Of a stretch of 40,000 nt of DNA, positions 4,698-39,358 are shown in pieces. Source of the DNA: Phycisphaerae bacterium (GTDB lineage Bacteria > Planctomycetota > Phycisphaerae > Phycisphaerales > Phycisphaeraceae); contig JAUHYI010000028.1 of NCBI GenBank assembly GCA_030426385.1, positions 10,032 to 50,031 of the forward strand, written 5' to 3'. Within the stretch, counting starts at the first letter, position 1; each line of letters opens with the position of its first letter. The position numbers and the translations under genes are program-made. The notes under the pieces were generated by a model. It searched no databases. It saw only the letters and a list, made by a program, of their open reading frames with translations, and was not told the DNA's origin.

Positions 4698-4791
4698 GGA
4701 TTGCATTGGTATCGCATGGCCACAAGCGTGGTCGCGAGTGTACTGCTAACACGAAATTAATTGTAAGAATTTGCAAAGAAAAGGTTTTGCC

Positions 4792-12819: not shown

Positions 12820-13194
12820 TTACCGGGTCCATTTTTTCTTCATCAGGGCTTCGTATCCCTCGAACGGCGTATCGTCGTCAGGGGTGGGATGCCACAGCAA
12901 CAGGTCCTGCATTTTTTTCGCCAGGGCAAAATCCAGGTCGGTGATACCGTCCGCCGAATGGGTGGCCAGTTTGACGGTGAAGTGGCCGTAGGACACGTTG
13001 AGGTCGGGATGGTGGCAGGCGGCCTCCGCGAGATAGCCCAGGGCATTGACGCACATCAGGGTGTGCTGCCAGCCGCCGGTTTTGAATTTTCGGCGAATCC
13101 ATTGGCCATCGTATTCCCAGTCGGGCAATTCGTCAGCCAGACGTTGCTTGATGGCATCGTCGTTCAGGGCGGTAGGTTGGGTGGGTTTGGACAT
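12820..13194 (-). CDS. Pterin-4a-carbinolamine dehydratase (PCD/DCoH family)
   Basis: The 124-aa form MSKPTQPTALNDDAIKQRLADELPDWEYDG..W has AACHHPDL.VSYG.FTVKL.THS..GIT..D, typical of PCD. The upstream part of the 263-aa track ORF is R/H-rich shadow sequence. Confidence 0.8.
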   Translation of the reverse strand: MSKPTQPTALNDDAIKQRLADELPDWEYDGQWIRRKFKTGGWQHTLMCVNALGYLAEAACHHPDLNVSYGHFTVKLATHSADGITDLDFALAKKMQDLLLWHPTPDDDTPFEGYEALMKKKWTR

Positions 13195-13272
13195 GGTGTT
13201 TTCCTTGTTTGAGTAGGTCATTGTAAACCGAGCCACCGGGCTTGTCGGGTTTGCATTACAATTTGCGGTTCC

Positions 13273-16003: not shown

Positions 16004-16072
16004 GGGGAAGGGGAATAACCACAGAGGCACGGAGGCACAGAGGAAGGCAGGGATGGTTGTCTGGAACTCGTG

Positions 16073-16153
16073 CGTTAGCCGCCGCCTTTATGGCGGCGCG
16101 GGGGTTTGGGGTTTATTGACGATGGCACGCCGCCATAAAGGCGGCGGCTAACG
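16073..16153. repeat. Palindromic double-hairpin element, copy 2 (between mch and the ATP-grasp gene)
   Basis: The left arm at 16073-16098 is identical to copy 1. The right arm at 16128-16153 is its perfect complement. The spacer is divergent. Confidence 0.85.
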
Positions 16154-16213
16154 GGGAATCATGCGAGAAAAATTATTGGAATCTGTATCAGTGTGTGGGT
16201 GGGAGAATTAATT

Positions 16214-17299: not shown

Positions 17300-18317
17300 A
17301 TTACCGAGTCCAGGACAGATCGCGCAATGGGCCTGTGTGGCTGAGGTCAGTGCCAAAAAAGCGGGGAATGTGCATCCGGGGCAGGGCGGTGCGTTTTCGG
17401 ATTGTGATTGGGAATCGTTTGTGGTCAGCGCGATGGTATGTCGGCCGATTCTGGATCGTGTAGCCGAGTTGGGTGTAGGCCAGGCAGTGTTGGCCGCGGT
17501 GAAAGCGACGCGCGACGCGGTGGGGGTGAATACGAATTTAGGGATGTTGTTGCTGTTAGCGCCGTTGTGTGTGACGGTGGAACGCGAGGCATTGCGTGGC
17601 GTGTTGGATGGGATTGATGGGGATGCGATGTATAAAGCGATTCGGTTGGCCAAGCCCGGCGGGTTGGGAACGGTGGATGAGGGAGATGTGCATGATGCGG
17701 GTGGATTGGGACGCGAGAAGGACGGGGAGAGGGCTAAGCCGCAAGGGGCGGGTCATGCGAGTGGGAATGCAGGGGGAAAAGCGGGGGGAAACGTGGGGGG
17801 GAATGCGGGGGGAAATGTGGGGGGGGTTATGGATGCGATGCGTTTGGCCGAAGCGCGTGATGGGATTGCCCGCGAATATGTGAATGGATTTGCAGGCGTG
17901 TTTGATTTTGTAGCGCGGCGGTTGGTGGAACGATACGATGCGGGCGAAGCGCTTGACCGAGCGATTGTGCGGGTGCATCTGGAATTGATGGCGCGGCAGC
18001 CTGATACGTTGATTGCGCGTAAGTGTGGGCAGGGGGTTGCGGATGAATCGGCACGGCGGGCGCAGAAGGTTTTGGATTGTGAAGCGGCTGATTTTGATCG
18101 GGAATTTGTCGGGTTTGATGCATGGTTGCGGGCCGATGGGCACACGCGGAATCCGGGGACGAGTGCGGACCTGATAGCCGCGGGGTTGTTCGTGGCGATG
18201 GCGCGGGGCGAAATTACGATGCCCTGGCGATGGGATGATGCGATTGAGCCGACTTATGAATTGGATGATGACGAAAACGCTGACGGTATCGCTGGCGGTT
18301 ACGATGACGATGAATGA
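17292..18317 (+). CDS. Triphosphoribosyl-dephospho-CoA synthase (CitG/MdcB) family protein of H4MPT clusters
   Basis: ACVAEVSAKKAGNVHPG, NTNLGMLLL.APL, PDTLIARKCG and NPGTSADLIAA motifs of the CitG family. ATG 17292 overlaps the upstream stop. It carries an in-frame SGNAGGKAGGNVGGNAGGNVGG insertion. Confidence 0.75.
   Translation: MHKLPSPGQIAQWACVAEVSAKKAGNVHPGQGGAFSDCDWESFVVSAMVCRPILDRVAELGVGQAVLAAVKATRDAVGVNTNLGMLLLLAPLCVTVEREALRGVLDGIDGDAMYKAIRLAKPGGLGTVDEGDVHDAGGLGREKDGERAKPQGAGHASGNAGGKAGGNVGGNAGGNVGGVMDAMRLAEARDGIAREYVNGFAGVFDFVARRLVERYDAGEALDRAIVRVHLELMARQPDTLIARKCGQGVADESARRAQKVLDCEAADFDREFVGFDAWLRADGHTRNPGTSADLIAAGLFVAMARGEITMPWRWDDAIEPTYELDDDENADGIAGGYDDDE
17761..17827 (+). repeat. 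G-run 12-nt tandem repeat inside the CitG-like gene (in frame)
   Basis: gtgggaatgca gggggaaaagcg gggggaaacgtg ggggggaatgcg gggggaaatgtg ggggggg; five to six 12-nt units. Confidence 0.9.
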
Positions 18318-18341
18318 CACGACGTTGTAGGGCGATCAAGT

Positions 18342-19439
18342 ATGGCTGATGGGTGTGGTGAGCATGTGAACGTGTTGGCGCTGGACATCGGCGGGGCGAA
18401 TATCAAATGGGCCACGTCGAGCGGAGCGTATGGTTCGCATCCATTTGCGTTATGGAAAGCGCCGGAATTATTGGTGGATGCGTTGCGTGTGTTGGATCGC
18501 GAGCATATGCCGGGGCGTTGGCTGGTGACGATGACGGGCGAGTTGTGTGATTGTTTTGAAACCAAGCGAGCGGGGGTGGAGCATATTTTGCAGGCAGTGG
18601 TTTCGGCAGCGTCAGGGAAAAAAGATGAGGATGAAAACGGAAACGCGCGTGTCGTGGTGTGGGGATGTGGGCGCGGCGCGGGGGGATTTGTTTCGGTGGA
18701 TGACGCGAGGGATGATCCAATGTCGGTGTCTGCGGCGAACTGGCATGCGCAAGCGTCGGTGATTGGCAGGCGATATCCGGTTGGTCGGACGTTGCTGATT
18801 GATATGGGGTCGACGACGACGGATGTGATTCCTTTGCGAGATGGCCGAGTGGATGCGGTGGGTCTGACGGACACGGGGCGATTGGCTACGGGCGAGCTGG
18901 TGTATGTCGGCGCGCGGCGAACGGCATTGATGGGTGTGGTTGATCGCGTGGTTTGTCAGGGGCAAACCTATCGGGTGATGAACGAGCGTTTTGCGACGGC
19001 GTTGGATGTGCAGTTATTGTTGGGGCGGATGAATGATGATGCATCGAATGTGGATACCGCGGACAATCGACCTGCGACGCGGGACTGTGCGGTGACGCGG
19101 ATGTTGCGCATGATCGGTGCGGACCGTGAGATGATGTCGGTTGATGATGCGGTGGCGATCGCGCGATCGTTTGACAATGCGATGCGGCAACGCGTGTTGG
19201 ATGAATCGGTTTTGTCACTGGGTGCGAATAGCCATGATGATGTTCACCGATGGGATCGAATTGTGATTTCAGGTTCGGGCGAATGTGTGTTGTCCGCATG
19301 GTTCGCGGATTTGGGTTTGGATGCGAATTCGGCGCAAAGGCTATCGGTTGAACGATTGGGTGATATGGTCGGGCCGCAAGCGACGGAAGCGGCGTGTGCG
19401 TGGGCGTTGTTGCAACTGGATCAAGAAAAAGAAGATTGA
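18342..19439 (+). CDS. Hydantoinase-A/oxoprolinase-like protein of H4MPT/methanofuran clusters (MfnF-like)
   Basis: ASKHA-fold signatures LALDIGGANIK and LLIDMGSTTTDVIPL; size and context match the H4MPT-linked hydantoinase-A-like family. Confidence 0.7.
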   Translation: MADGCGEHVNVLALDIGGANIKWATSSGAYGSHPFALWKAPELLVDALRVLDREHMPGRWLVTMTGELCDCFETKRAGVEHILQAVVSAASGKKDEDENGNARVVVWGCGRGAGGFVSVDDARDDPMSVSAANWHAQASVIGRRYPVGRTLLIDMGSTTTDVIPLRDGRVDAVGLTDTGRLATGELVYVGARRTALMGVVDRVVCQGQTYRVMNERFATALDVQLLLGRMNDDASNVDTADNRPATRDCAVTRMLRMIGADREMMSVDDAVAIARSFDNAMRQRVLDESVLSLGANSHDDVHRWDRIVISGSGECVLSAWFADLGLDANSAQRLSVERLGDMVGPQATEAACAWALLQLDQEKED

Positions 19440-19440
19440 C

Positions 19441-20076
19441 ATGAATACGGATTGTCCACGACATGTGATCAAGCTTGGCGGCAGTTTGTTGAGCCTGTCT
19501 GATTGGGGTGAGCGGCTGGTGCGTTTTTTAGCCTCGAGCGATGAGGAAGTGCTGGAAAAAGAAGGAAAAAAAGGGGGGCAAGTGGCCCGATGCGGTGGGG
19601 TGTTGGTCGTGGGTGGTGGTGGTGCTGCGGATATGGTGCGGGCATGGTGTGCGACCCATGAGATTGATGATGCGACGGGACACGAGTTGGCTGTTGATGC
19701 GATGCGGTTTAATGCGGGGATGGTCGTGGCGGTGTTGCGAAAATTAGACGTGGACTATCAGTGGGTGGCACGCGGGGACGACTTGGATCGTTTGCACGAC
19801 GGTTGCCTGGCGATCATTGATCCGGTGACGTGGCTTGCTCATGCGGACGTGCCGCGGGTCTGGCAATTCACCAGCGATTCGATTGCAGCACGCGTGGCCA
19901 CGGATATCGAGGCGGGACGTTTGACGTTATTGAAAAGCACGTTGCCGAATGACGATGATGCGGTTGCATCGGCGGGCATCGTGGATGATTGGTTTGCTCG
20001 GGCGTCGGCAAGTTTGCCTTGGGTGGAGCTGGTTAATTTGCGTGATGATGCGTTGCCGGCGTGGCGGCTGCGATGA
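19441..20076 (+). CDS. Amino-acid-kinase-fold protein of H4MPT/methanofuran clusters (MfnE-like candidate)
   Basis: N-terminal VIKLGGSLL and VLVVGGGGAAD motifs of the aspartate/glutamate/uridylate kinase fold. ATG 19441 directly follows the upstream stop (19437-19439). The upstream part of track ORF 19285-20076 is a shadow frame. Confidence 0.65.
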   Translation: MNTDCPRHVIKLGGSLLSLSDWGERLVRFLASSDEEVLEKEGKKGGQVARCGGVLVVGGGGAADMVRAWCATHEIDDATGHELAVDAMRFNAGMVVAVLRKLDVDYQWVARGDDLDRLHDGCLAIIDPVTWLAHADVPRVWQFTSDSIAARVATDIEAGRLTLLKSTLPNDDDAVASAGIVDDWFARASASLPWVELVNLRDDALPAWRLR

Positions 20077-20779
20077 TCTGCTTCAGCTCGGCGACACGTT
20101 GCGCGTCGATGGCTGATTGCCGATCGTGATTGGTGCAAGCTGCTCCACGGACCGCGATGATATCGGGACGCAATGTGGCAACCTGTTGGACAAGCTCGCT
20201 GCGCAACGAACCGGCCAGCGCGATGAATAGGCCGTCGGCATGGGCACGATTGATCCAGGCGTTGAGTTGGCCGGGCGTGGCGTGGTCCAACAATGTTTGG
20301 CCGTTTTTGATGGCGGTGTCGATCAGGATCCCCGCCGCGCGATGGGTGATGGCGTAGTCGATGATTTCATCGACAGTGGGTGTGGGTGTGGGTGGTGGGG
20401 GGGAGGTGGTGGGGGGGATTGATGCGTGGTCGGCGTAGGCGGTGGGGATCAAGCGTGGGTGGCCGGTGAGTTGTGCGCGCCAATCACGTGGCGCGTTGGC
20501 CAAACCAATTTTGACGAAATCCAGCGGAATATCGCTGGGAAAACGATCGGTTTGATCGACCAGTTCGCCCAGGGCTGCGCTGACAGGGAGGTAGGGTTGC
20601 GATTGATTCGCCTGTTGTTGTTGGTGTTGTTTGACGGTGGCGACGATCGCTCGAATCACGTCATGGTCAGCGCGACCCAATGCGCCATGGGCGGGTTCTT
20701 TGATATCGATGATGTCAGCGCCACCCGCCATGGCGGCGCGGCATTCATCGACATGGCGCACACTGACCAGCAATTGCAT
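20033..20779 (-). CDS. mfnB: (5-formylfuran-3-yl)methyl phosphate synthase (MfnB, DUF556 family), methanofuran biosynthesis
   Basis: MQLLVSVR...EC..A..GGADIIDIKEP..GALG, DFVKIGL, ILIDT..K and ALAGSL motifs of the MfnB family. It contains Q-rich and PPPPTPTPT insertions. Confidence 0.8.
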   Translation of the reverse strand: MQLLVSVRHVDECRAAMAGGADIIDIKEPAHGALGRADHDVIRAIVATVKQHQQQQANQSQPYLPVSAALGELVDQTDRFPSDIPLDFVKIGLANAPRDWRAQLTGHPRLIPTAYADHASIPPTTSPPPPTPTPTVDEIIDYAITHRAAGILIDTAIKNGQTLLDHATPGQLNAWINRAHADGLFIALAGSLRSELVQQVATLRPDIIAVRGAACTNHDRQSAIDAQRVAELKQIIAAATPATHHHAN

Positions 20780-23210: not shown

Positions 23211-23257
23211 TAGGGGGGGTAAAATTGGGGGCAAATCCCAATCGCCTGATATGACGA

Positions 23258-24210: not shown

Positions 24211-24341
24211 TATTCAAGACCCATCAAACCCAATTGAGCCGACGAAACACATGAAATGACACATGTCAGGCAAGCAAGGGAAACGCAGGGTACGTGGCCG
24301 ACGACGGCAGTGCTGGGCTGGTGTGGGGGGGGGGTGGGGGG

Positions 24342-25229
24342 TTAGGCTTGGGGTTCAGCGGCGGCGACGGGCTCAGCCGGTGAGGCTGGTGGCGTGGCCG
24401 GTGCTGCGGGGGCTTCGGTTGTTTCGGCAGCGGCGGTTTCACCAGCGGCCGGGGCTTCGCTATTGTCAGCCGAGAACATGGCTCGTCGGCTACGTTTGCG
24501 TTGCGGTTCACCGCTGGCATTGTTGTCTTGACCGCGGGCAGCCACGGTACGCGTGCCTTTGCCTTCGTTGACGGCGGCACACAATTGCGAGATGACCACT
24601 TCGATCGAACGCATGGCATCATCGTTGCCGGGGATGGCAATGTCAGCCATGTCGGGATCCGAATCGGTGTCGATCAGGCAGATGGTGGGGATGCCGAGTT
24701 TACGGGCTTCCTTGACCGCGTTGGTTTCGCGTTTGACATCGACGATGACCAATGCGCCGGGGAGCTTGGTCATGTTGCGAATGCCGTCGAGGTTGCGTTT
24801 GATTTTGGTGCGTTCGCGCATCAACTGTGATTCCATTTTCTTGGAATAGTTGTTGATTTCGCCGGACTCGACGAGGTTGTCGAGTTCATCAAGGCGTTTG
24901 AGGCGTTCGCGAATGGTGCGGAAGTTGGTGAGCGTGCCACCGAGCCAACGTTCGGTGACGTAAGGCATGCCGGTTTCGCCGACGATGGTTTCGATGCAGT
25001 TGCGGGCCTGTCGTTTGGTGCCGACGAAGAGGACGTCTTTGCCCGAGCCGACCAGTTGTGTCAGGTATCGTCGAGCGAGCAACAAGCCCTTGACGGTGGT
25101 TTTCACATCAATGATGTGGATCTTGTTGCGTTTGCCGTAAATGTACGGCGCCATCTTGGGGTTCCAGTTGGTGGCACGGTGGCCAAAATGGATACCGGCT
25201 TCAACGAGGTCTTTGACGAGAGATGCCAT
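24342..25229 (-). CDS. rpsB: 30S ribosomal protein S2
   Basis: [10 protein letters not shown]....[43 protein letters not shown] upstream. The C-terminal tail is A/P/E-rich. Confidence 0.95.
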
Positions 25230-25510
25230 AACGAGCTCCTGGGAAAGTGTCGGCCGATCGGTGACGGTCCTATGTGAGCCTTTTTGGACTCATTGGCAGG
25301 GTTGCGTCACGAACCACCCTTGTCCGAATTATCCCGAGTTTGCCAACGTTTTGAGGGTCTTGCGGACCTTGAGACGTTGTTTATACCTGGGAAAAGGTGG
25401 GGGGCTCAGCCTGTTTGTCCGTAAAATCTTCAATATTTACGGTGAAAAAAGCGTCGCTCCAAACTGCTCGACCATCGAGCTGGACCGACGACAACATTTT
25501 GTATTATGAA

Positions 25511-25582
25511 CCACCCCCCCCACATTCCCCCCCACACGTACCCACATTTCCCCTCCGTGCCTCCCGCATTTCCCCCGCAATT
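25511..25582 (-). repeat. G-run repeat block (C-rich on the plus strand), intergenic upstream of rpsB
   Basis: ccaccccccccacattcccccccacacgtacccacatttcccctccgtgcctcccgcatttcccccgcaatttc. Confidence 0.8.
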
Positions 25583-25766
25583 TCGTACACGCTCTCCGCA
25601 TGCACGTGGCACAGCTTGTACCCTCACTTCAAATGGTTCAGTAGCGCAAAAACCCATTGTACGCATCGTCAGCATACTTGCAAGTGGCAGGGGTCAAACT
25701 GAACACGCGATGCCTGCGGTCGTCACCCGATCCATGCGAATGGCAAGTGGAATAGCAAGGATAGTG

Positions 25767-25824
25767 CGGTGGGGTGTTGGGGGGAGGGGAGTGGGATGGA
25801 GTGGAGGGGGGGAGTGGGGGGGAG
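25767..25824 (+). repeat. G-run repeat block, intergenic, G-rich on the plus strand
   Basis: cggtggggtgttggggggaggggagtgggatggagtggagggggggagtgggggggag. Confidence 0.75.
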
Positions 25825-25866
25825 CGAATAATCCCAATCCCGATAAAAACCATGCATGTGGTAAAT

Positions 25867-25946
25867 CGTTAGCCGCCGCCTTCATGGCGGCGCGATGGTC
25901 TAGGTTTGACGCACGTTTCGCGCCGCCGTGAAGGCGGCGGCTAACG
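25867..25946. repeat. Palindromic double-hairpin element, copy 3
   Basis: The arms at 25867-25892 and 25921-25946 are the same as in copies 1 and 2, except for paired substitutions in the arm loops (TTTAT to TTCAT, ATAAA to GTGAA). Confidence 0.85.
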
Positions 25947-26024
25947 ATAAAGCACGCGAAATCGCGCGTGTGTATGTTTGTGGGGTGGGTATTATACGGA
26001 TTACGATAAATACTCGCGCGTAGA

Positions 26025-26097
26025 TTTTTATTAGCTCCCGGTGAATACCGGGAGTTTGTGTGAAGGGAAATTTGAGGCCGCGCGAGTTTTTAATGGG
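26025..26097 (+). repeat. 73-bp repeat (left copy) containing the hairpin CTCCCGG-tgaata-CCGGGAG followed by TTTGTGTG
   Basis: It is the exact reverse complement of 39925-39997. I derived this by hand base by base. Confidence 0.85.
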
Positions 26098-26120
26098 GTG
26101 GATATCATCCCGAAATGATG

Positions 26121-26197
26121 ACAAGAAATGGCGAAGAAATGGCGAAGGAATAGCCAAGAAATGGCCAAAGAATTGCGGAGGAAATGTGGGGGGGGGT
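26121..26197 (+). repeat. 11-nt tandem repeat (about 7 units) decaying from ACAAGAAATGG to a terminal G9 run, abutting the stop codon of the transferase gene
   Basis: acaagaaatgg cgaagaaatgg cgaaggaatag ccaagaaatgg ccaaagaattg cggaggaaatg tggggggggg. Confidence 0.8.
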
Positions 26198-27699
26198 TAG
26201 GCTGATTTGCCGGTGGGGCTGAGGATATCGGGGCCGACTGACGAGGGGGGCAATGCGTTGGCTGAGGCTGAGGCTTGGGCGGTCTTGGCGGCTTTGGCGA
26301 GATTGGCCTGGGTTTGTGCCAGTTTGGCCTGATGGGAGCTGGCCAGAGCGCGTTTGCGTCGGATGCCCATGATTACGCCGAGGCAGAACGTGGCAAAGAG
26401 CCAGATACCCAGCACGATCATGGCATGACGCAGGCGAACCCCAGGCAGTGAAAGCGAACAGCCCAGCGCTGCGAAGCCAATGCCCGCGATATAGAGGGTG
26501 ATGACCGCCTGTTTGACGGATAGGCCCATGCGGATGAGTTTGTGATGGAGATGTTGGTTGTCAGGGCTGAGAATACCGTGCCCGTGGATGGTCCTGCGGA
26601 TGATGGCCAAGAGGGTGTCGGTGATGGGCAGGCCGAAGACGACCAGTGAGGCGACGACAAAGCGTGGTCCGCTCTCGGCAGTGTGAGCGAAGAGGAGGAT
26701 GGTTGAAATCGCGAGGAACCCGAGCAACAGCGAGCCGGTATCGCCCATGAAAATGGACGCGGGGTTGAAGTTGTAGACGAGGAAGCCGAGCAAGGCCCCG
26801 ATGAGCGCCAGGCCCATGACGATGCGCACCGGATCGGATACCGGGTCACCGCCGATGGCGTAAATATGATGGCTGATGTTGGTTTGGCTGATGAAGTCGT
26901 AGTGCTGGATGGCGACCAAACCGGCGAGAATCAGGAAGCCGACACATGCGATGGCGGTGACGCCCGCGGCTAATCCGTCGAGTCCGTCAAGCAGGTTGAC
27001 GGCATTACACCCGCCGATGACGAAGATCGCGATGATGGCAGCGCCGAGGATGTAGGTGAATGTGGGGTCGGTATCAATGCCGCCTGCGCGGAAAAATTCG
27101 AACGCCAGTTTTTGTCCGACATCCTGCGTGGCCAACCAGGCGGCGGCGAGCATCTGGCCGCCGACCTTGACACGCGGGCTGATGGCATAAATGTCATCAA
27201 GCAAGCCGACGATCACGATGATGATGGCACCGATGAGGATGGCGGTGGGAAACGCGACGTGGGTGATTGGCGAGATGTGTTCAGGGGTGGGATGCGGGGT
27301 CATGCTCAAGCTGACGGCGATACCTGCCAACCAGCCGAAGAAAATCGCGACTCCGCCCAGGTAGGCGATGGGTTTGCGATGATGTTTGCGGACCTCGTCG
27401 GGACGATCGACGATGTTGTTGGAGATGGCCAGACTGCGCAGGATCGGGGTGCTGAGCAGGCTGAATGCCAAGGCCGCGACGAAAACCCAGCGATAGTACC
27501 AGATGATTCCGAACAGGCTCATGGAAAATTCAGGGTGAGCGTCAGCATGGGTCGTCTGGGCGATGAATGACGAAGAGAATGACGAAGAAGCTGAGATAGG
27601 TGATAAATCAGCCACGGCCACCACCGGCTCAATCAAGGATTGAGCGATCAATGCCAGGGAATAGGGCAATAGCGGTGCGGTCACTGCGAACGACTCCAC
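26197..27699 (-). CDS. Glycosyltransferase family 4 polyprenyl-phosphate sugar-1-phosphate transferase (WecA/MraY-like)
   Basis: D.P..RK.H..P..YLGG, NAVNLLDGLDGLAAG and FMGDTGSLLLGF motifs with multiple TM helices. An alternative start at ATG 27522 (MSLFGIIWYY) would remove the overlap with the upstream gene. Confidence 0.85.
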   Translation of the reverse strand: MESFAVTAPLLPYSLALIAQSLIEPVVAVADLSPISASSSFSSSFIAQTTHADAHPEFSMSLFGIIWYYRWVFVAALAFSLLSTPILRSLAISNNIVDRPDEVRKHHRKPIAYLGGVAIFFGWLAGIAVSLSMTPHPTPEHISPITHVAFPTAILIGAIIIVIVGLLDDIYAISPRVKVGGQMLAAAWLATQDVGQKLAFEFFRAGGIDTDPTFTYILGAAIIAIFVIGGCNAVNLLDGLDGLAAGVTAIACVGFLILAGLVAIQHYDFISQTNISHHIYAIGGDPVSDPVRIVMGLALIGALLGFLVYNFNPASIFMGDTGSLLLGFLAISTILLFAHTAESGPRFVVASLVVFGLPITDTLLAIIRRTIHGHGILSPDNQHLHHKLIRMGLSVKQAVITLYIAGIGFAALGCSLSLPGVRLRHAMIVLGIWLFATFCLGVIMGIRRKRALASSHQAKLAQTQANLAKAAKTAQASASANALPPSSVGPDILSPTGKSA

Positions 27700-29054
27700 G
27701 ATGTCCCGGTTTTCCCCGAATGTCGAGGGGGCTTAACGTCGTTGGTAGAAATCTCGGCCTGGCCGGGGTTTACGTTGACGTTGCAGGCTGGCTGGCTGGC
27801 CGATCTCGCTGCCACTTCGGCCTGCCTATCGGCCGATTTTGCCCCCGGTTTTACCACCGATTGTGCCCCCTGATGCTGGTTCGTGGACGCGGTACGCTCG
27901 AGACTGATCAGGTCGTCGAGCGTCTGGTCAAGCGATATTGTAGCGGAAAACCCGGTGGCTGTCTGTAGTTTTTCCAGCGCGGGGGCCCGTCGCATCAGGT
28001 CATCAAAATTTTGCGCATACGCTTGTTCATAAGGCACATACGCGAGTGTCGAACGCGAGTTGGAACGCGCGATGATACGCTTGGCCAGATCAGTGATACT
28101 GATCGGCTGGGCACGGCCGACGTTGAACACCTGGCCGTGACAGGCGGGCGTCTCAACCAGGCGAATCAGGGCCTCAACGGTGTCACGGACATCGCAAAAG
28201 CAGCGGGTCTGAGTGCCGTCGCCGTAAATTTCCAGAGGCAGGCCCGCGACGGCACGTTGGACAAAACGCGGGACAACCATGCCGTAGTTGCCGATCTGTC
28301 GTGGGCCGATGGTGTTGAATAGTCGAGCGACGACGCAGCGAGCCTTGCCGTTCTGGTGATACGCCAGGGCCATGTGTTCGTCGAGGGCTTTGCTATGGGC
28401 ATAAGACCAACGCGGGCTGGTCGTCGGGCCTAGTTCCAGCGTTTGGTCCTCACGCATCGGAATGCGGTCGGTCATGCCATACACCTCACTCGACGAAGCC
28501 ACCAACACCCCCCCCACGTTCCCCCCCACATTTTCCCCCACGCTTCCCGCCGCATTGCTTCCTACATTTTTCCCCGCATGCTCCACATTGCCTTTGGTTG
28601 TTCCGTTTGTATTTCCGGCTGTATTTCCGCTGGCGGGGGTATTGATCAGGTTGGCGTGATTGGCGACGGCTTCGAGCAGGGCGGCGGTTTGATCGATGTT
28701 GTTGCGAATGGCTTCGACGGGGTTTTCCACGACCAGCCGCACGCCGACGGTGGCCGCCAGGTGATAGACCGCGTGCACGTCAGCCATCAGTTCAGGCTCG
28801 CGTTTGAGGACAGCGGCAACCTGACCCTGTCGCCAGATGTGAGGCAATTGAGTGAAATGGGCGGGCAGATTTTGCGATCGGCCTGTGGATAGGTCATCGA
28901 TGAGGATGAGTCGATCGCCGCGCTGGGCTAATCGATGGGCCAAATGCGAGCCGATGAATCCTGCGGCACCGGTGATTAAGGTGGTTCGGCCGCTTGGCGC
29001 ATTGCCTTGGGCCGCGGTGTCGGACGGGGGAGTTGTGGGGGGCGTGGCAGTCAA
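27681..29054 (-). CDS. NAD-dependent epimerase/dehydratase (extended SDR, nucleotide-sugar modifying)
   Basis: TGAAGFIGSHL Rossmann motif, SSSEVYG, and YAHSK (YxxxK catalytic). TTG start. It carries an in-frame insertion of about 45 aa made of 12-nt G-run repeats. Confidence 0.85.
   Translation of the reverse strand: MTATPPTTPPSDTAAQGNAPSGRTTLITGAAGFIGSHLAHRLAQRGDRLILIDDLSTGRSQNLPAHFTQLPHIWRQGQVAAVLKREPELMADVHAVYHLAATVGVRLVVENPVEAIRNNIDQTAALLEAVANHANLINTPASGNTAGNTNGTTKGNVEHAGKNVGSNAAGSVGENVGGNVGGVLVASSSEVYGMTDRIPMREDQTLELGPTTSPRWSYAHSKALDEHMALAYHQNGKARCVVARLFNTIGPRQIGNYGMVVPRFVQRAVAGLPLEIYGDGTQTRCFCDVRDTVEALIRLVETPACHGQVFNVGRAQPISITDLAKRIIARSNSRSTLAYVPYEQAYAQNFDDLMRRAPALEKLQTATGFSATISLDQTLDDLISLERTASTNQHQGAQSVVKPGAKSADRQAEVAARSASQPACNVNVNPGQAEISTNDVKPPRHSGKTGTSWSRSQ
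28507..28640 (-). repeat. 12-nt G-run repeat array inside the epimerase gene (in frame), with a purity gradient
   Basis: Coding strand: aatgtggagcat gcggggaaaaat gtaggaagcaat gcggcgggaagc gtgggggaaaat gtgggggggaac gtgggggggg; encodes GNVEHAGKNVGSNAAGSVGENVGGNVGG. Confidence 0.85.
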
Positions 29055-29161
29055 TCAAATCCCTCAACACGTCAGCATGACGTTGGCGTTACGTCCGGGT
29101 AGGGCAGGACCGAGTGGTGGAGCCGATTGAGGGAGACAAGTGAGCGGCGAGTGGTGCGCCA

Positions 29162-29228
29162 TGGGGGAAACGAGTGGGGGCGGAGTAGGGGGGCGGAGTG
29201 GGGGGCAGTGGGGGGGCAGTGGAGGGGT
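29162..29228 (+). repeat. G-run repeat block, intergenic upstream of the epimerase gene
   Basis: tgggggaaacgagtgggggcggagtaggggggcggagtggggggcagtgggggggcagtggaggggtg. Confidence 0.75.
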
Positions 29229-29261
29229 GAATGCGATGCTTGTTCTGAACATGCCCGCGTG

Positions 29262-29510
29262 GAACCCTGACCTCTCGGAACCCTGGCCTCCCGGAGCCCT
29301 GAACCCTGATTTTGTAACTCTGACCTCTTGTAACTTTGGCCTTTTGTAACCCTGATTGCTTGTAACCCTAATCGACTGGAACTCTGGCTTGTCGAACCCG
29401 ATGTCTTCGGAATCCAAACCCGCGAATCTAGCCCCGAAAATACCCCCCCCCCGGCCCGCCCGGAAATAACCTGCGAATCTACCTACTCCCACAGAATCCT
29501 GATCGGTTAC
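29262..29510. repeat. Phased degenerate 16-bp tandem array (11 clear units to 29435, looser to about 29510) filling the kinase-epimerase intergenic region
   Basis: Unit starts fall at 29262, 29278, 29294, then 29313, 29329, 29345, 29361, 29377, about 29393 and about 29409. Cores are GAACCCTG / TGTAAC(C/T)CTG / GAATC. Confidence 0.8.
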
Positions 29511-29581
29511 CGCATCACTTGCCTTAACCAGCCGGCTGTCGGTCATGGATGGCATGGTGACGACTGTGCTCGACTTGCGGG

Positions 29582-32129: not shown

Positions 32130-35100
32130 TCATTGGGTTTCTAATTCTGCCATACGTTGGGTGGTTAAGTCCAGAATTTCTTGATCATTGGTCGATTTTG
32201 CCAGATCGAGGGCCTGATTGAGTAGATTTCGCGCTTCGATCAATCGGCCATCCTGAATCATCGTCATTGCTAAATGATAGGCTGCCGGCGCGATCGGTTC
32301 GATACTCAGGCTCATTTGCAGGGTTCTTTCGGCCTCCTGATAGCGTTTAAGCCGGTAATAGATCCATCCCAGAGTGTCGAGCAATTGGGGATCGCCTTGG
32401 CTTGAAGGGCGACTCTCCACGATTTCGTTGGCTTTTTCAGCCAGTGGGAGGGCCTGTTCGGGCAGGTTGAGGTCTTCGCAGAGCAGGTACGCCAGATTGT
32501 TGAGTGAGGCCACGTCTTCAGGCACGACCTCAAGAATTCTCTCATAGGCAGCCCGCGAAGGCTCAAAGATCTGTTGTTGATAATAACAGATGGCTCTTAA
32601 CCGATCTGCCATGATTTGCTCCGGGCTTCCCTGGATGAAACTGATCGGCTCGAGCCGAGCGATCGCCGCGCTGTAGAGTTGTTTGTTGGCTTCGAATTGA
32701 GACTTGGCCAGTTCCAGCCAATCGCTTTGGGCGGGAAGCTCGAGCTTGGACAGTTCGCCTAGCAATTGATCCTTGCCCCAGGCCTGTTCCATCTGGTTGG
32801 CGACGATCAGAACTTGCTGGATGCTTCGGCACTGTTCCATGGCCGTGGCAAAGTCCTGGCGTGCTTCTTCGGCTTGCGAAAGCTTGGCTTTCGTATGGCC
32901 ACGCAGTGCCAGCATAATCGGCTGGTTCTGGACATGTTCTTCGTGAGCTTGCAAGGTTGCCAAGGCATCGCGGAGCTTGTTGTGGTTGATGAGCATCTGC
33001 GTCAAGTCGGCCACGGTCTTAGGCGTCGCGTTGAGTTTGACCAGTTCTTTCTGGAAGCCGATCGCGCTGTCGATCCGTTTGGCCTGCAAGTCGAATTGAA
33101 CTTGATAGGTCAGCCACGACGGGTCATCGGGAAACATTTCGCGGCTTTCTTTGAGCAGGTCACGCAACAATGTGGTACGGCCTGCCGCTTGATACAGCCG
33201 GACCAGCATATGTCGGACCTGGTTGTATTCGGGGGCATATTCAAGAAGTTTACGCGCTTCGGTCGTAGCCAGCGTGAAGTCCTGGCGTGAGGTATACAGT
33301 TCTACTAATTTGATACGAGCCTGAATCATCGCCGGATTGATGTTGATCGCGCGGTTGAGTTGTGTGATCGCCTGCGCTTCCTGCCCAGGGATTTGCAACA
33401 GCGAGGTGGCGCGTTCGAAATACACCGTCGGATTGTTCGGCACCATTTCAGCGGCTTTGTCGAAGTAACCGATGGAATCCTGGAATCGGCCACGCGTTCG
33501 CGCAATCATGCCTCGCAGCATTAATGAACTGGCGCTGGGCGATTCGTTTTGCATGGCTTGATCAAGCGTTTTCTCCGCTTCATCAATTTGATTCTGACGC
33601 AGCAACGCTTCGGCCAGACGCAGGCCGACGCGGTTGTCGTTGTTCTTGTTTTTCATCAGTTCGCGATACAGTTCGATGGCATCTTCATTGCGTTGCAAAG
33701 AGAACAACGCATCGGCCAATTGCCGGGTGCCTTCCTGGATCGAAGGGTCTTCGACTTTGCGCGATGCGCGATAGTAGGCCAGTGCGGTATCCACTTCGCC
33801 CATTTGTTGCATGAACCGTCCAGCCATCAACCAGTCGATGGATTGCGCGTCGTCGCCGAGCTTGCTGGTGTAGTCGATCAATGTCTGGCGGGTGCCTTCG
33901 AGATCGCCTGCCGCGCGTTTGAGTTGGGCCTGGGTAAGCACGTTGGCGCGGTTCATGCCTTCCTCAGCGACGATGGCGTCGAGCGTTTGTTGGGCTTCGA
34001 TCGGCTTGTCGATATCTGCCAGTAACACCGCCAGCGTTCGGCGATTGACAATATCTTTGGGGTTGTCCTTGGCTTGTTTTCGGCGATATTCAAGCACTTT
34101 CATGGAATCGCCATGTTCGCGTTCGTAAGCCAGATACGTGTTGAGCAAATTGGTGTTGCCAGTGGCGTAGTCGCTGGCTTGTTTGAAATGCAACAGGGCT
34201 GAGCTGAAATCGCCCAGTGCATTGAATGCCAGGGCCATGCCGCGATGGACGGCGGCGGTGTCGGGTTTGAGTCGCAGTGCTTCCTGATACGCATCGCGGG
34301 CCGAGGCGTAATCACCTTGGGCCATCAGTGCATCACCGAGCACGCGCCAAACGGTGGCGTCGAGCGAGTTGAGTTTGCTGGCACGTTTGAGACTGGTCAC
34401 CGCCAGATTGATGCGTTGTTCGGCCAATTCCAGACGACCGCGATAGACCAGGCCTTGCACACGATCAAGGTTTTGCTTGCTGGCGACTTGTGCCAGATTG
34501 CGTGCTGTATCGTAATCTTCGTTTTGCAATGCTTCTTCGAAACGAATCTGAACGATTAACGGGTGCGTCGCATCAATGGTTTCTGCGGCGACCAATTCTT
34601 TCTCGGCATCTTCCACGCGATTGCTGGCAACCAGCAGGCGATATTTGTTCAGGTGTTTTTGGATAGGCGTTTGTGAAGTGCTGTCGATCTGTTCGGTCAG
34701 CAAAGCCATCGTGTCGATGCTGCTGTCGAACTGACTGGCCATCAGGTTCAACACCTGCTCGGTGGTGCCCGCTTGTTTGGCGCGATCGAGATAGAGCTGC
34801 TTATTGTCCGGATCCAATTGCAACACCATTTGCAACAGCGAGGTATTGGTCGGCTCGGCTTCGAAGCGTGCTCCTGCCAGTGCGAGGGCTTCATCCTTGC
34901 GGTCGGCTTTGTAATAGACACGGATCAGGATTTGTGCCAACGCTGGATCGTCTGCGGCTCCGATGGATTCGAGCAAATCAATCGCGTCGCTGTATTTTTG
35001 CTCAGCCATCAGAAGTTGCACTTTCAACTGACGGGCAATTTTGTTACCCGGCTCGTTTTGCAGACAGTATTCCAATTGCTGGCGGGCCAGGTCGAGTTGG

Positions 35101-36611
35101 CGTGTGCCGATGTAGATTTCTACCAGACGCAGACGTCCGGGAATGTAATTCGGCTGGGCTTTGATCACCGTCAACAAACGCTCAGCAGCCGCGCCGGAGG
35201 TTCCCATTTTGCGATGGGCTTCGGCAGCGAGTACGAGGGTTTCCATGTGACTGCCGCCGAACTGCGTGTTGGCGACTTCAAGTTTTTCAATGGCATCAAC
35301 CCATTGGCCACGCTCGATCGCCACGCGTCCGGACAACAGGTTCACAATGCCGCTGTCACCACTGGTGTCACGCAATTCCTTGATCAGATCATCAACGCGT
35401 GCCAACAGTTCTTTACGCTCTTCGAGCGATTTGTTTTGGGCCTGGACCAATAGCAATGTGGCGCTTTGCTCCGCCGCCACGTAACGATATTGCGAAACCA
35501 TCAGTGCCTGAAGCGGGTCGGTCTTGTAGGTCGTTTGGCGAATGTCGTCGAAAATTTCGTAAGCCTCGTCAGACTTTTGCGACAGCCGCAACATTCGCCC
35601 GTATGCGAGTTTCAAACGCAACGCTTTGGGGTTGGCTTCCACAGATTTGGCTAACAAGGCGACCGCACGTTCGAGGCCCTGGCTCCAACGCGTGTTGTCC
35701 GCATCCTGATCAGAAGGCTCAGGGAATAGTTGGATCATCAACTCGACAATGCCAAGTATCGTGTTGGGCTGATCCAGATAATTGTCGGCTTGCGATTCGA
35801 GTTGGAGCACCACTTCGCGGGCATCTTTTTCTTCGTCGGCTTGTTGCAAGGTGCGCGTCAGTTGCAACAACGGCTCAGGATTGTCCGGATTTTTTTGGCT
35901 GGCTTCACGCAGTATGTTGATCGCAGTAATGCGATGGCTTTCGACGTCATCGAAACGGATGCCGGTCTTTTTGATGCGCGCTGCTTCGGCTAAATGCCAT
36001 TTCGCGTCGGCATAGATCGTCTCCAGATCGTCGGGCAGTTGTGCGAGGACAAAATCAATATCCTGACGTGTCAGTTCCCGTTCTGTCTGATTCAGGTCCA
36101 GGGTGTTCAGGCGTTCAACCTGTGCGATGGCTCGATACTTTCGGGCTAACAGATTGTCGGGCTGACTACCCAGCAACGAGGTGGTGCGTTCGTAAACGCG
36201 CTCCCACACTCGCGTATCGTTCATTTCTCGGCCCAAGGAAATGAACATCTCCATCAGGCGCGTCATCGCTTCTTCGTTGGTCGGATCAATATTGAGCGCT
36301 CGGCCCCACCAGTTACGCATCTGATCGATCAGACTGCGAGCTTGTTTGGTATCCGATATCTGGAACTTGCTGACCGTGTCGGTGTAACGCAGAATCAACT
36401 CGAGATTGTTCTTGTCCACCTTCAACGCTCGGCCATACTGCTGAGCGGCACGTTCATAATCGCCTTGCCGATAAAAACTGTCCGCACGAGCGATATACTC
36501 GGCAGGATCGGTCTTGGCAGTTACCCACCAGGCGGCAATGACACCACCACCGGCCATCAGTAGGATAGCGATCAATAAAACAACGAATTTTGTATTAACT
36601 CGGCCTGCCAT
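32130..36611 (-). CDS. Very large membrane-anchored TPR-repeat protein (PrsT-like, EPS/exosortase-associated)
   Basis: N-terminal TM anchor FVVLLIAILLMAGGGVIAAWWV, followed by dozens of 34-aa TPR-like repeats (recurrent A..Y..AL...P.N, G.Y..A...). Confidence 0.85.
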   Translation of the reverse strand: MAGRVNTKFVVLLIAILLMAGGGVIAAWWVTAKTDPAEYIARADSFYRQGDYERAAQQYGRALKVDKNNLELILRYTDTVSKFQISDTKQARSLIDQMRNWWGRALNIDPTNEEAMTRLMEMFISLGREMNDTRVWERVYERTTSLLGSQPDNLLARKYRAIAQVERLNTLDLNQTERELTRQDIDFVLAQLPDDLETIYADAKWHLAEAARIKKTGIRFDDVESHRITAINILREASQKNPDNPEPLLQLTRTLQQADEEKDAREVVLQLESQADNYLDQPNTILGIVELMIQLFPEPSDQDADNTRWSQGLERAVALLAKSVEANPKALRLKLAYGRMLRLSQKSDEAYEIFDDIRQTTYKTDPLQALMVSQYRYVAAEQSATLLLVQAQNKSLEERKELLARVDDLIKELRDTSGDSGIVNLLSGRVAIERGQWVDAIEKLEVANTQFGGSHMETLVLAAEAHRKMGTSGAAAERLLTVIKAQPNYIPGRLRLVEIYIGTRQLDLARQQLEYCLQNEPGNKIARQLKVQLLMAEQKYSDAIDLLESIGAADDPALAQILIRVYYKADRKDEALALAGARFEAEPTNTSLLQMVLQLDPDNKQLYLDRAKQAGTTEQVLNLMASQFDSSIDTMALLTEQIDSTSQTPIQKHLNKYRLLVASNRVEDAEKELVAAETIDATHPLIVQIRFEEALQNEDYDTARNLAQVASKQNLDRVQGLVYRGRLELAEQRINLAVTSLKRASKLNSLDATVWRVLGDALMAQGDYASARDAYQEALRLKPDTAAVHRGMALAFNALGDFSSALLHFKQASDYATGNTNLLNTYLAYEREHGDSMKVLEYRRKQAKDNPKDIVNRRTLAVLLADIDKPIEAQQTLDAIVAEEGMNRANVLTQAQLKRAAGDLEGTRQTLIDYTSKLGDDAQSIDWLMAGRFMQQMGEVDTALAYYRASRKVEDPSIQEGTRQLADALFSLQRNEDAIELYRELMKNKNNDNRVGLRLAEALLRQNQIDEAEKTLDQAMQNESPSASSLMLRGMIARTRGRFQDSIGYFDKAAEMVPNNPTVYFERATSLLQIPGQEAQAITQLNRAININPAMIQARIKLVELYTSRQDFTLATTEARKLLEYAPEYNQVRHMLVRLYQAAGRTTLLRDLLKESREMFPDDPSWLTYQVQFDLQAKRIDSAIGFQKELVKLNATPKTVADLTQMLINHNKLRDALATLQAHEEHVQNQPIMLALRGHTKAKLSQAEEARQDFATAMEQCRSIQQVLIVANQMEQAWGKDQLLGELSKLELPAQSDWLELAKSQFEANKQLYSAAIARLEPISFIQGSPEQIMADRLRAICYYQQQIFEPSRAAYERILEVVPEDVASLNNLAYLLCEDLNLPEQALPLAEKANEIVESRPSSQGDPQLLDTLGWIYYRLKRYQEAERTLQMSLSIEPIAPAAYHLAMTMIQDGRLIEARNLLNQALDLAKSTNDQEILDLTTQRMAELETQ

Positions 36612-36669
36612 GGCAATATTCCTCTAGGCTCATCGGGTCATCCCGCGTATCAGTTAATCGATCCTCAAT

Positions 36670-36764
36670 CCCCCCCACATCCCCCCCACATCCCCCCCAC
36701 ATCCCCCCCACATCCCCCCCACATTTCCCCCGCATTCAACCCCCTACATCCCCCGCATTTTCCC
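36670..36764 (-). repeat. Five perfect 11-nt units (GGGGGGGATGT on the minus strand) plus degenerate units; G-quadruplex-capable
   Basis: Plus strand C7ACAT x5 at 36670-36724, then ttcccccgcattcaaccccctacatcccccgcattttccc. It lies about 60-155 nt upstream of the TPR start (36611), on that gene's sense strand. Confidence 0.9.
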
Positions 36765-36988
36765 TGGTCTGGTACACCCGCTATTTTTTTCGATCCAATT
36801 CCCCGCCTGTTATTTGTTTCGTGGTTTTTATTGGCCACATTTAGTGTGGTTTGCCATTTTGTGTTTCACGTTGGCGGTTGTATTGGACTTTTACAGGTGA
36901 TATTTCATGTCGGTTTTTACGTGTACACGTTTTTTCGGTTAATTCGTGGGGCACGATTGGTCGTTATGGCTTTGGTTTTTGCGATGGC

Positions 36989-39358
36989 TTAGCTCCCCGG
37001 CTCATGATCAGTGTAGGCGACTTGGTTGGCGGGGTTATCAGTGGATTGGTTCGCGGGCCAGAGGCCGGCTTTGACATCTACCCAATCAGGCAAACAGGCG
37101 AGCACTTCGGGCATTGCTTGCGACAAAAATTTCGAGGCAATTTCGCGGGCCTTCTCCGGGTCTTCGACCTGATGGACCAGCACTTCGATTTTGCAGTAAT
37201 AGCTGTATTGATCGCGCAGATCGAATCCCTGCAATCGCACATGATCGGGCGTCGGCAGGAACTTGCCATTGGCGCTGAAAAAATAGATGACGTTCGATGC
37301 CGGAATCGCTTGCGTACGTTGGGCGCTCTGGGCTGGGCTGAATGTAAAAATCGTGGCAGGAATATCAAGCCTGGCGACACGCACCGGCTTGTCGGCGATT
37401 TCGGAAAAGGCGACGATTTCTTCCTGGTTCTGCGCGTCGTGTTGGGTTTGGTATTGCGAGCCGGACAACGTGACGTCGGCGATGGTTTTGTTGATCGCTG
37501 CGGCGCCGCCTGCCACGAAACATCGATCGGGCACATGCGGGACGGTGTCGGCATCGCCGGTGTAGTAGGCCACGTGTAAACGCACGATCGAGCCGGGCGT
37601 ATTTTCAGGCAGGCTGGTGTCCATGTAGGTCCGGCTGAGGTATTGCTCGGTGCCCAGCTCTTCGAGAATTTCGGCGCTCATCAAATCGTCTTTGCCAATT
37701 TGTTCATAAGTCCCCAGGACGCTGGGCACGTAGACCCAGAAGGGTGATTTACGCAACGGCACGGGTTGCTTGATCAACACAACTTGCATGGCTGAGACGG
37801 TGCTGGTCAGTCCGAAAATGCCCACGACCAAAATCGCCAAGGTCAGACTCAGCGCCGCATAGGACGGTTGACGATAGCTGGCTCGCAATTCCGGTCGCAG
37901 TAACTTCCAGGTCAGCCAACTCAGCACCAGCATGCCCAGGCACGCGGTGATCAACATGGTCAACATGACCGGCTTGTTCGAATAGGGCACCAGGTCGGGT
38001 CGTATTTGCGAGACGATGCCCAACACGATGACGCTGACGAGCATGATCATGCCCAGGCCTGCGCCCAAACCCCATATGATGCGCGCGGTGGGTTTGGTTT
38101 GCCCGTTATGTGTTGGCGATGCGTTGCGATCGGTTCCGGCTTGGTGGTTGGCCAGCCAGATCACCATGTGATACAGCAGAACGACCAGTCCGACTGGAGA
38201 GCGCACCTGTCGGCACAGGGTGCCCAGATTGATGTCATCCTCGCTGGAGGCGCGGTGTGAGTTGGCGGACGTTTGTTCAGACTTGGTGGTGCGTGGGGTT
38301 GACTGAGGTGTGGTGGCCGTGGTGGGTGAGGTTGTGGGTGAGGTTGTGGGGGAGGTGGGGGGTGAGGTGGGGGATGTGGGTGGGGGGTCGGTCACGATGA
38401 TGTGATCGAGAACCCAGCCGAGTAACAGGAACAAGCCCGCGGCGGGAATGAGCATGAGCATGCCGACGAAGGTGTGGAAGCTGCCCTTGGCCAGTTCGGG
38501 GTAATAGATGTGCAGCAAGCCGAGTGTGGTGACGCGGGCGATGTTGATCGAGACGGCGATGGGAACCGCCAGGGCGACCATGATCAAGCGTTGCCACCAT
38601 GTGCGGGGAATGAGAAACGCCAGCGCGACGCCCAGCGATAAAAACGCTGCGAGCATGCGTAACCCGGAACAAGCTTCGGCCACATTGAGCGGATCACTGC
38701 TGATCCATTCGCCGTTGCGATAGAAACTCAGATCGATGGTGGACCCGCGATTTTCGACATCGAAATTAAACAGCATGCCCAGCAATTTGAGGATGACCGT
38801 CGAGGTGCCAGCGGCGATCAATTGCAGTTTCCAAGCGATCTGTTCCCAGATGCGATCGGAGACCTTGACCGCGAAACTCAGGAACAGAATCGGAAACCAC
38901 AAGTAGCGCATCATACGCGGACCCAACAGGAATAACACCATGCCGAACAGGGCAATGATCATGCTGTAACCGCTGAGCATGTCGTTGCGTCCCGGTCCCA
39001 GCCACCAGGCATAGCTGGCAATGCCGAGCAGAAAAAATACCAGCCCAGGCAGGAAAACCTGACGGGGGGTTTGCAAGAGTGTCTCGCGATGTTGGTAGAT
39101 GTAGATGGCGCTGATGAACGGAATGATCAGGGCATGGGACCAGTCGCGATTCCACGTGGCTCCGGGAATGCTAAGGAGCACTTCGAATAGATTCGCCCCT
39201 TGGCCGTTGGTGGCGATGCGTAACATGCGTTCGAGGAAGTGGCCATGGAGAATGACAAACAGCACGCCCAACAGCGCGATCCACAGCCACGTTCGATGCG
39301 AGAGCGCCGAGCGGGTTCGCTGGTGTTTGTTGATGTGACTGATACTCGTGGTGCTCAT
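36989..39358 (-). CDS. Exosortase (EpsH/Xrt family) fused to a C-terminal EpsI-family domain
   Basis: The N-terminal polytopic domain has the exosortase catalytic motifs EACSGLR, NIARV and FHTFVG. A P/T/S linker and extra TM helices follow. The C-terminal EpsI-like domain has AYYTGDADTVPHVPDRCFVAGG. Confidence 0.85.
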   Translation of the reverse strand: MSTTSISHINKHQRTRSALSHRTWLWIALLGVLFVILHGHFLERMLRIATNGQGANLFEVLLSIPGATWNRDWSHALIIPFISAIYIYQHRETLLQTPRQVFLPGLVFFLLGIASYAWWLGPGRNDMLSGYSMIIALFGMVLFLLGPRMMRYLWFPILFLSFAVKVSDRIWEQIAWKLQLIAAGTSTVILKLLGMLFNFDVENRGSTIDLSFYRNGEWISSDPLNVAEACSGLRMLAAFLSLGVALAFLIPRTWWQRLIMVALAVPIAVSINIARVTTLGLLHIYYPELAKGSFHTFVGMLMLIPAAGLFLLLGWVLDHIIVTDPPPTSPTSPPTSPTTSPTTSPTTATTPQSTPRTTKSEQTSANSHRASSEDDINLGTLCRQVRSPVGLVVLLYHMVIWLANHQAGTDRNASPTHNGQTKPTARIIWGLGAGLGMIMLVSVIVLGIVSQIRPDLVPYSNKPVMLTMLITACLGMLVLSWLTWKLLRPELRASYRQPSYAALSLTLAILVVGIFGLTSTVSAMQVVLIKQPVPLRKSPFWVYVPSVLGTYEQIGKDDLMSAEILEELGTEQYLSRTYMDTSLPENTPGSIVRLHVAYYTGDADTVPHVPDRCFVAGGAAAINKTIADVTLSGSQYQTQHDAQNQEEIVAFSEIADKPVRVARLDIPATIFTFSPAQSAQRTQAIPASNVIYFFSANGKFLPTPDHVRLQGFDLRDQYSYYCKIEVLVHQVEDPEKAREIASKFLSQAMPEVLACLPDWVDVKAGLWPANQSTDNPANQVAYTDHEPGS
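38300..38388 (+). repeat. 12-nt G-rich tandem repeat inside the exosortase gene (coding strand C-rich)
   Basis: gtgggtgaggtt gtgggtgaggtt gtgggggaggtg gggggtgaggtg ggggatgtgggt gggggg; encodes PPPTSPTSPPTSPTTSPTTSPTT on the minus strand. Confidence 0.8.

Follow-up and report, generated by a model that had tools for sequence, protein, structure and literature searches.

The described systems most like the one reported here are eukaryotic G-rich minisatellites located upstream of genes, such as ILPR and CEB1, and engineered G-quadruplexes (G4s) in bacterial 5' UTRs. The human insulin-linked polymorphic region consists of (ACAGGGGTGTGGGG)n, and CEB1 and CEB25 are eukaryotic G-rich minisatellites that form G4s; variation in repeat number is the hallmark of an active minisatellite. 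Poly-G and short tandem repeats also act as contingency loci in surface genes of Campylobacter, Neisseria, and Haemophilus. RNA G4s on the sense strand are reportedly under-represented in bacteria. Stable short-loop G4s are reported to be rare in bacteria and genetically unstable (PMC6614823). In E. coli/T7 systems, translation was enhanced when a G4 on the non-template strand stood 43 bp ahead of the ribosome-binding site (PMC11087576). A search of the literature on planctomycete G4 or G-run families found nothing specific.

In a 40,000-nt stretch of DNA from a Phycisphaerae bacterium (the whole stretch analyzed, hereafter the window), the spacer between an exosortase gene and a TPR gene carries a tandem G-run array. 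On the + strand, CCCCCCCACAT is repeated five times at positions 36670-36724 with 0 substitutions, and this (C7-ACAT)x5 sequence reads (ATGT-G7)x5 on the - strand; the five identical 11-nt units were recovered by TRF and as five occurrences of ATGTGGGGGG. All five perfect tracts are exactly G7. Both flanking genes lie on the - strand, which makes the G-rich strand their sense (non-template) strand, and the preliminary description of this locus, made by a model from the letters alone, was right about both the five substitution-free units and the strand on which they lie. Adjoining them on the - strand, as read from the sequence, are degenerate units at 36725-36764 comprising three G5 runs and one G3, with spacers AAATGT, GAATGC, ATGTA, and AAATGC (+ strand C5 runs at 36727-31, 36740-44, and 36750-54 and C3 at 36762-64). 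The degenerate units are probably older than the perfect ones. They had been described as following the perfect units, which holds only in + strand coordinates; read along the sense strand, they precede the perfect units, on the 5' side. The TRF call over the array spans 36668-36754, with a period of 11, 7.6 copies, and a score of 119.

The array shares with ILPR, CEB1, and CEB25 a tandem 10- to 14-nt unit made of a G-run and a short (A/T)GT-type spacer, G4 propensity on one strand, a position upstream of a gene, and an expected tendency to expand. Unlike these minisatellites, it is bacterial and has G7 tracts where theirs are G3-4. The E. coli/T7 reporter G4s (PMC11087576) and the mycobacterial PE/PPE rG4s (PMC10801317) likewise present a sense-strand PQS tens of nucleotides upstream of a ribosome-binding site, but they are single four-tract G2-G3 motifs with tested effects, whereas the present case is an eight-tract repeat array. 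The Neisseria gonorrhoeae pilE G4, mentioned in PMC6614823, is like the array in lying upstream of a surface-structure gene. It is a single 16-nt motif that works together with a neighboring sRNA promoter and with silent donor cassettes, and no counterpart of these was found here. Finally, REP/BIME elements and a G/C-rich intrastrand-triplex motif family (PMC4666352) resemble the array's family in being short, genome-scattered, often intercistronic, and linked to genome instability, but the family described here lacks a palindromic hairpin, forms tandem G-run arrays, and also occurs in-frame in coding sequence. A REP/BIME-type repeat was rejected as an assignment, there being no inverted repeats in 36600-37000.

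Both neighbors of the array belong to an EPS/exosortase operon on the - strand, comprising genes for an exosortase, a PrsT-like TPR protein, a BY-kinase, a UXS-like epimerase, and a WecA-like transferase. The exosortase is a 789-aa EpsH fused to an EpsI-like domain (36989-39358, - strand; PF09721, PF11984, and TIGR02602), and its best matches are 66% identical and are labeled Phycisphaeraceae. The TPR protein (32130-36611, - strand) has 1493 aa, an N-terminal membrane anchor, and matches to Pfam TPR families; TIGR02917 scores 249.9 bits on it, which is below the cut-off. Orthologous TPR genes align with it from residue 1 on, in support of the start codon at 36611. The last G of the array (36670) lies 58 nt from this ATG, and 225 nt separate the exosortase stop (36989-91) from the array edge at 36764, so both distances first estimated for the locus held. 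An SD-like GAGG (36624-36621) follows the array by 45 nt and precedes the ATG by 9 nt. Long spacers are the rule in this operon (268, 527, and 377 nt), and the BY-kinase/epimerase spacer of 527 nt (29055-29581) also contains two 16-nt tandem repeats (29261-29366) and a G10 run on the - strand (29443-29452).

Chance is excluded as the source of the repeat, given 13 occurrences of ATGTGGGGGG in the 40-kb window against 0.20 expected; 0 of 100 shuffled sequences reached 13. Compared with first-order Markov simulations, the window also has 19 canonical G4 motifs against 2.1 and 51 runs of G6 or longer against 22.9. Perfect short repeats are hard to assemble, and a poly-G sequencing artefact or a collapsed or expanded repeat would be one way of accounting for the array. 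We consider such an artefact extremely unlikely. An independent Logan assembly (ERR3420974) reproduces the TPR gene exactly, together with its leader and 28 nt (about 2.5 units) of the array, and the contig breaks within the array, as expected of a k-mer assembler in a perfect repeat. Moreover, the family to which the array belongs has structured ATGT spacers, keeps frame in four conserved enzymes, and is contig-internal. If assembly were nonetheless at fault, the exact unit count of five is the only part that could be wrong.

The capacity of the array for G4 formation is strong at the level of sequence. With five G7 tracts separated by 4-nt loops and three further G5 tracts, it conforms to the canonical PQS motif (at least four tracts of G3+ with loops of 1-7 nt on one strand), and G4Hunter ranks it as the longest and strongest region of the window (110 nt, mean absolute score of 1.99). 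ViennaRNA computed an energy of -139 kcal/mol with G-quadruplex terms, a value extrapolated for 7 layers, versus -40.6 kcal/mol without them. G7 tracts can align in numerous registers, and steric constraints make a parallel RNA G4 of 7 tetrads with 4-nt propeller loops implausible; the computed -139 kcal/mol is thus an extrapolation. Some G4 would very likely form from the array in vitro, whereas one "ideal" fold is not likely. The preliminary description had called the array an ideal intramolecular G4 former; the potential it saw is there, and the word "ideal" is too simple given the registers and the steric problem.

Could such a structure have been selected as a regulator of the TPR gene? 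Folding of the array in non-template DNA or in intercistronic mRNA or the 5' UTR would then tune expression of the TPR gene relative to that of the exosortase gene by promoting R-loop-assisted transcription, by shielding the message from RNases, or by standing as a bulky barrier that steers ribosomes to the start codon. In favor of this, the sense strand is the G-rich one and forms the strongest G4Hunter region of the window, and no intrinsic terminator was detected on the - strand in the stretch from the exosortase stop to the array; the lack of a terminator-like site makes it plausible that the array would be present in a read-through mRNA, and it is probably transcribed. In addition, its position 45 nt before the SD-like GAGG is near the 43-bp geometry at which enhancement was reported (PMC11087576), so that any effect on the TPR gene would be predicted to be enhancement, not repression. 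Further copies lie on the sense strand upstream of rpsB and of a UDPGP-family gene, and, like the geometry, these count in favor of a selected role. Against such a role, scans for sigma-70 promoters (36500-37100) and sigma-54 promoters (whole window, with matches at chance level) found no - strand match in the spacer, although these scans may not cover planctomycete promoters. The repeat also occurs antisense, inside ORFs, and after stop codons, which argues that its sequence alone does not imply a role. Weighing these points together with the comparison with relatives below, we regard selection of the array as a G4 regulator as unlikely.

The rest of the 377-nt spacer was inspected for signals. 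The 58-nt leader between the array and the TPR ATG (36612-36669, - strand) has no second copy in the window, and the part between the exosortase stop and the array (36765-36988, - strand) is A-rich and unique (44% A on the - strand, 43% GC). Within this A-rich part, a perfect 12-bp palindrome, ACGTGTACACGT, lies at 36919-36930, 155 nt upstream of the array on the sense strand; as a rough estimate, about 0.1 such palindromes are expected per 377 nt, and it was not considered significant. A known cis-regulatory RNA was rejected, as Rfam yielded no match at E<=1 in 36000-37600 and none at the gathering score in the whole window. Small ORFs of 46 and 57 aa across the array were also dismissed; neither product is on record, and all three frames are open through the array because its 11-nt unit lacks a stop codon.

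Comparison with relatives bears on the origin of the array. An alignment-based scan of GTDB genomes identified at least 78 orthologous Phycisphaerae exosortase loci, and ATGTGGGGGG occurs in 0 of the 78 loci listed. Among these, the TPR gene directly follows the exosortase gene in at least 66, and the gap between the two genes is 5-205 nt (median of ~41, 95th percentile of 139); at one locus (L012), for example, the TPR ATG lies ~58 nt after the exosortase stop. With a maximum of 205 nt among the loci listed, the 377-nt spacer is an outlier, and the absence of the repeat from all 78 together with the tight gaps identifies the array as a lineage-private addition to a normally tight junction. 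It is, on the same count, not a conserved regulatory element of the exosortase-PrsT junction, and most of the listed loci lack room for an array of this kind, which weighs further against a selected G4 regulator. The suggestion that the array is positioned to modulate the TPR gene, part of the preliminary description, thus found no support: no promoter match accompanies it, the 78 listed orthologous loci lack it, and its repeats occur in both orientations across the window. There is no evidence that the array evolved as a regulator, and it does not appear to have been built as one.

The array is one member of a dispersed family. When the 377-nt spacer was compared with the window by blastn, only the array part (36657-36764) matched elsewhere, at 12 other sites with 73-87% identity over 40-85 nt, in agreement with the earlier proposal of a G-run family. 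The unique flanks indicate that the array is not part of a larger mobile element, and assignment to a MITE or other mobile element was rejected on this basis. Among the bases preceding the 51 runs of G6 or longer, G occupies position -2 in 41 and T occupies position -1 in 38, with A-rich sequence further 5'; these preferences give a family unit of G6-9 with (A)(A)ATGT before it. Taken as tandem units of G6-9 plus (A)(A)ATGT/ACGT/AGT, the family is over-represented, occurs at multiple loci, and has members on both strands, inside genes and between genes; 13 of 18 clusters are on the + strand, a bias that is not significant. Elsewhere in the window, arrays contain at most 2-3 identical units, and the array described here is, as first suggested, the purest member. 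As the window covers only 40 kb of the genome, these family statistics are small.

Intergenic members besides the array include one ~77 nt upstream of the UDPGP-family gene (4619-4704, + strand) and one ~285 nt upstream of rpsB (25503-25577, - strand), both with the G strand sense, and one in the 527-nt BY-kinase/epimerase gap (29158-29237, + strand), where the G strand is antisense to the operon. The rpsB member lies in a 967-nt gap between a GT4 stop and the rpsB start (25230-26196) that holds no supported gene; this gap contains G-run arrays in both orientations (25503-25577 and 25757-25833) and 3.9 copies of an 11-nt tandem repeat, AAGAAATGGCG, at 26122-26173. Elsewhere in the window, GC skew reaches +0.29 to +0.52 per kb over 13000-20000, far above the rest, in a + strand H4MPT/C1-transfer cluster (FTR, FhcC-like, MCH, RimK-like, CitG-like, and hydantoinase-like genes). 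The first part of the window (1-2100) is T/G-rich, with an AT skew of -0.36 to -0.45, a G10 run at 1565-1574, hexamer repeats (GTTTGG, CTTTTG x6.5 at 1020-1058, GCTTCG, and TCCGGT), and no Pfam-supported ORF.

Copies inside genes take the form of in-frame insertions. All four sense copies use the common frame GGG AAT GTG GGG and encode (G-N-V-G)n in 12-nt units: in the FTR (FhcD) gene (13897-13972, + strand), a 25-aa insertion reading ...GKNVVGNVGGNVGGGGG; in the RimK-like (MptN-like) gene (16435-16523, + strand), GNVGKNVGGSAGEKVGGVGG; in the CitG-like gene (17755-17826, + strand), GNAGGKAGGNVGGNAGGNVGG; and in the UXS-like epimerase/dehydratase gene (28491-28556, - strand), part of a ~45-aa insertion ending ...GENVGGNVGG. 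The antisense copies encode P/T/S linkers, namely, PPTTSPPPPTPTPT in MfnB (4-HFC-P synthase; 20374-20430, + strand) and the EpsH-EpsI linker, PTSPTTSPTT..., in the exosortase (38319-38388). TRF periods differ between settings, being 12 and also 9 and 6 for coding copies and 11, 10, and 23 for non-coding ones. For the FTR and epimerase copies, insertion is evident from solved structures and homologues. FTR residues 197-221 are missing in 16 of 16 aligned homologues and are absent from PDB 1FTR (M. kandleri), where they would fall between residues 191 and 192; the nearest FTR homologue among 5.8 billion clustered proteins is only 64% identical. Relative to human UXS1, the epimerase has an insertion, residues 127-181, in place of ~9 residues.

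Other Phycisphaerae FTR homologues (e.g., P0191, P0192, P0193, P0202, and P0213) have their own, unrelated low-complexity insertions in a different loop, after DGxQKSK, and the FTR enzyme thus tolerates insertions repeatedly in Phycisphaerae. The copies inside genes are best explained by a DNA-level repeat process filtered by reading frame and peptide tolerance; protein-level or locus-specific design explains them less well. In a collection of 15 billion proteins, no exact match was present for the four array-bearing proteins tested (genes at 13273-14277, 17220-18317, 27681-29054, and 36989-39358), and six neighboring proteins from the same contig were present, among them MfnB, which carries an array. 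The absence of exact matches may reflect differing start calls or pseudogene/frameshift calls at G-runs.

The setting of the array, with slippage-prone G tracts and tandem units beside a cell-surface polysaccharide gene, recalls the contingency loci mentioned above. Gain or loss of an 11-nt unit, or of single Gs, would in that case switch or grade a component of surface-polysaccharide export. A perfect, slippage-prone tandem array upstream of a cell-envelope/EPS gene is what such phase variation would use, and G-run lengths of 5 to 10 in older family members fit G slippage over time. Unlike contingency loci, the array lies outside reading frames and is not between recognizable -35/-10 elements (with the proviso that planctomycete promoters may be uncovered), and the family is also present in housekeeping enzymes (FTR, CitG-like, and RimK-like), where switching would be harmful. 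The uniform G7 length of the five perfect tracts also counts against this reading. Phase variation is, on balance, a distinctly improbable function for the array.

The complementary strand offers another possibility. Rho prefers C-rich, G-poor RNA, and an antisense transcript of the array, (C7-ACAU)n, would be C-rich and G-poor; the array might load Rho and so suppress antisense transcription into the exosortase gene, or serve a protein that binds G- or C-runs. Immediately beyond the rpsB, GT4, and tsf stops, other family members read as C-rich in the mRNA, at places where a termination signal would fit. This argument is purely positional, and against it the family has mixed orientation across the window and neither an antisense promoter nor a candidate binding protein was identified; we consider action through the C-rich strand or a run-binding protein highly improbable. 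In the mRNA sense, C-runs abut the stops of rpsB and the WecA-like GT4 gene, and one lies 27 nt after the stop of tsf (24325-24344, 26188-26199, and 23213-23231); the rpsB and GT4 C-runs have a common junction, ...GCC TAA C6-10 ACA. These C-runs might be 3'-end or Rho-loading signals, or coincidence.

Similar repeats were also sought in metagenome and viral collections. Two adjacent units were present in 82 stretches among 241 M metagenome records and in 2 viral contigs, and blastn found none of these stretches similar to the window. Sampled array-rich metagenome contigs had only short, scattered ORFs, and of ten Pfam-scanned ORFs, all from VFQP01 contigs, nine had no match and one had a partial HSP70; on these grounds the contigs were judged to be eukaryotic microsatellites. 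The units in such contigs (L108, L116, L154, and L156 from Ga0307488/9; L120; and L095, L142, and L152 from VFQP01) are G6-TATGT or G6-7-(A)ATGT, nearly the same as in the window, with up to 9 units per array. Two other contigs, L086 (2564-2593) and L141 (1323-1361), are GC-rich, gene-dense, and prokaryote-like and carry 12-nt (GGGGGG-CCATGT)n arrays in long ORFs, and they may be further, independent examples of G-run repeats kept in frame.

Taken together, we somewhat favor the explanation that, among local expansions of a G-run minisatellite specific to this Phycisphaeraceae-like genome, the array is the youngest and largest, arising by slippage or unequal exchange and tolerated in a non-coding spacer. 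Five units without a substitution point to recent expansion, and the occurrence of the repeat in both orientations, in coding and non-coding DNA, across the window points to a genome-wide mutational process, not a locus-specific device; the presence of the family inside enzyme genes also makes the array look more like the product of repeat expansion than a purpose-built switch. Whole 11-nt units would be added through slipped-strand replication or unequal recombination. The host spacer would have ballooned to 377 nt between genes that in relatives are near-contiguous and presumably co-transcribed, and the array would be tolerated because it lies in this non-coding spacer. Inside genes, only frame-preserving 12-nt versions would survive, whereas a non-coding unit would be free to be 11 nt long. 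A G-quadruplex or R-loop could form ~45 nt upstream of the TPR ribosome-binding site, and a side effect on TPR expression or local stability is plausible. The 224 nt of unique A-rich spacer are unexplained by repeat expansion. Alternatively, the perfect homogeneity of the units could stem from purifying selection or gene conversion instead of youth.

A bolder and more doubtful version of the expansion hypothesis is that the genome hosts an actively expanding, G4-prone minisatellite (G6-9 plus AATGT) driven by a lineage-specific DNA-level mechanism, which seeds spacers and also places (G-N-V-G)n or P/T/S insertions in frame within conserved enzymes. Its newest burst would be the exosortase-TPR array, acting as a hypervariable modulator of EPS-export expression. 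The driver could be slippage, template switching induced by G4s, or deficient resolution of G4s. If true, this would be a natural counter-example to the idea that bacteria purge stable G4s from sense-strand transcripts.

In sum, the locus carries a caution, in that the position of the array looks regulatory while the comparative data identify a recent, lineage-private addition. G4-prone tandem repeats close to bacterial genes are a known kind of element; what is unusual is the purity of the G7 tracts, the size of the array, and, above all, the dispersed family that also occurs in-frame in conserved enzymes. The array alone is modest, and the genome-wide phenomenon, which rests on 40 kb, is more surprising. 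The window has ~19 canonical G4 motifs per 40 kb, including an eight-tract array in an operon spacer, and sense-strand G6-9 arrays inside C1-metabolism and sugar-nucleotide genes. If this pattern is genome-wide, the organism would be a natural system for studying how bacteria tolerate or use an extreme G4 load, as well as how DNA-level repeats create protein insertions and how arrays may tune operon-internal exosortase/EPS expression.
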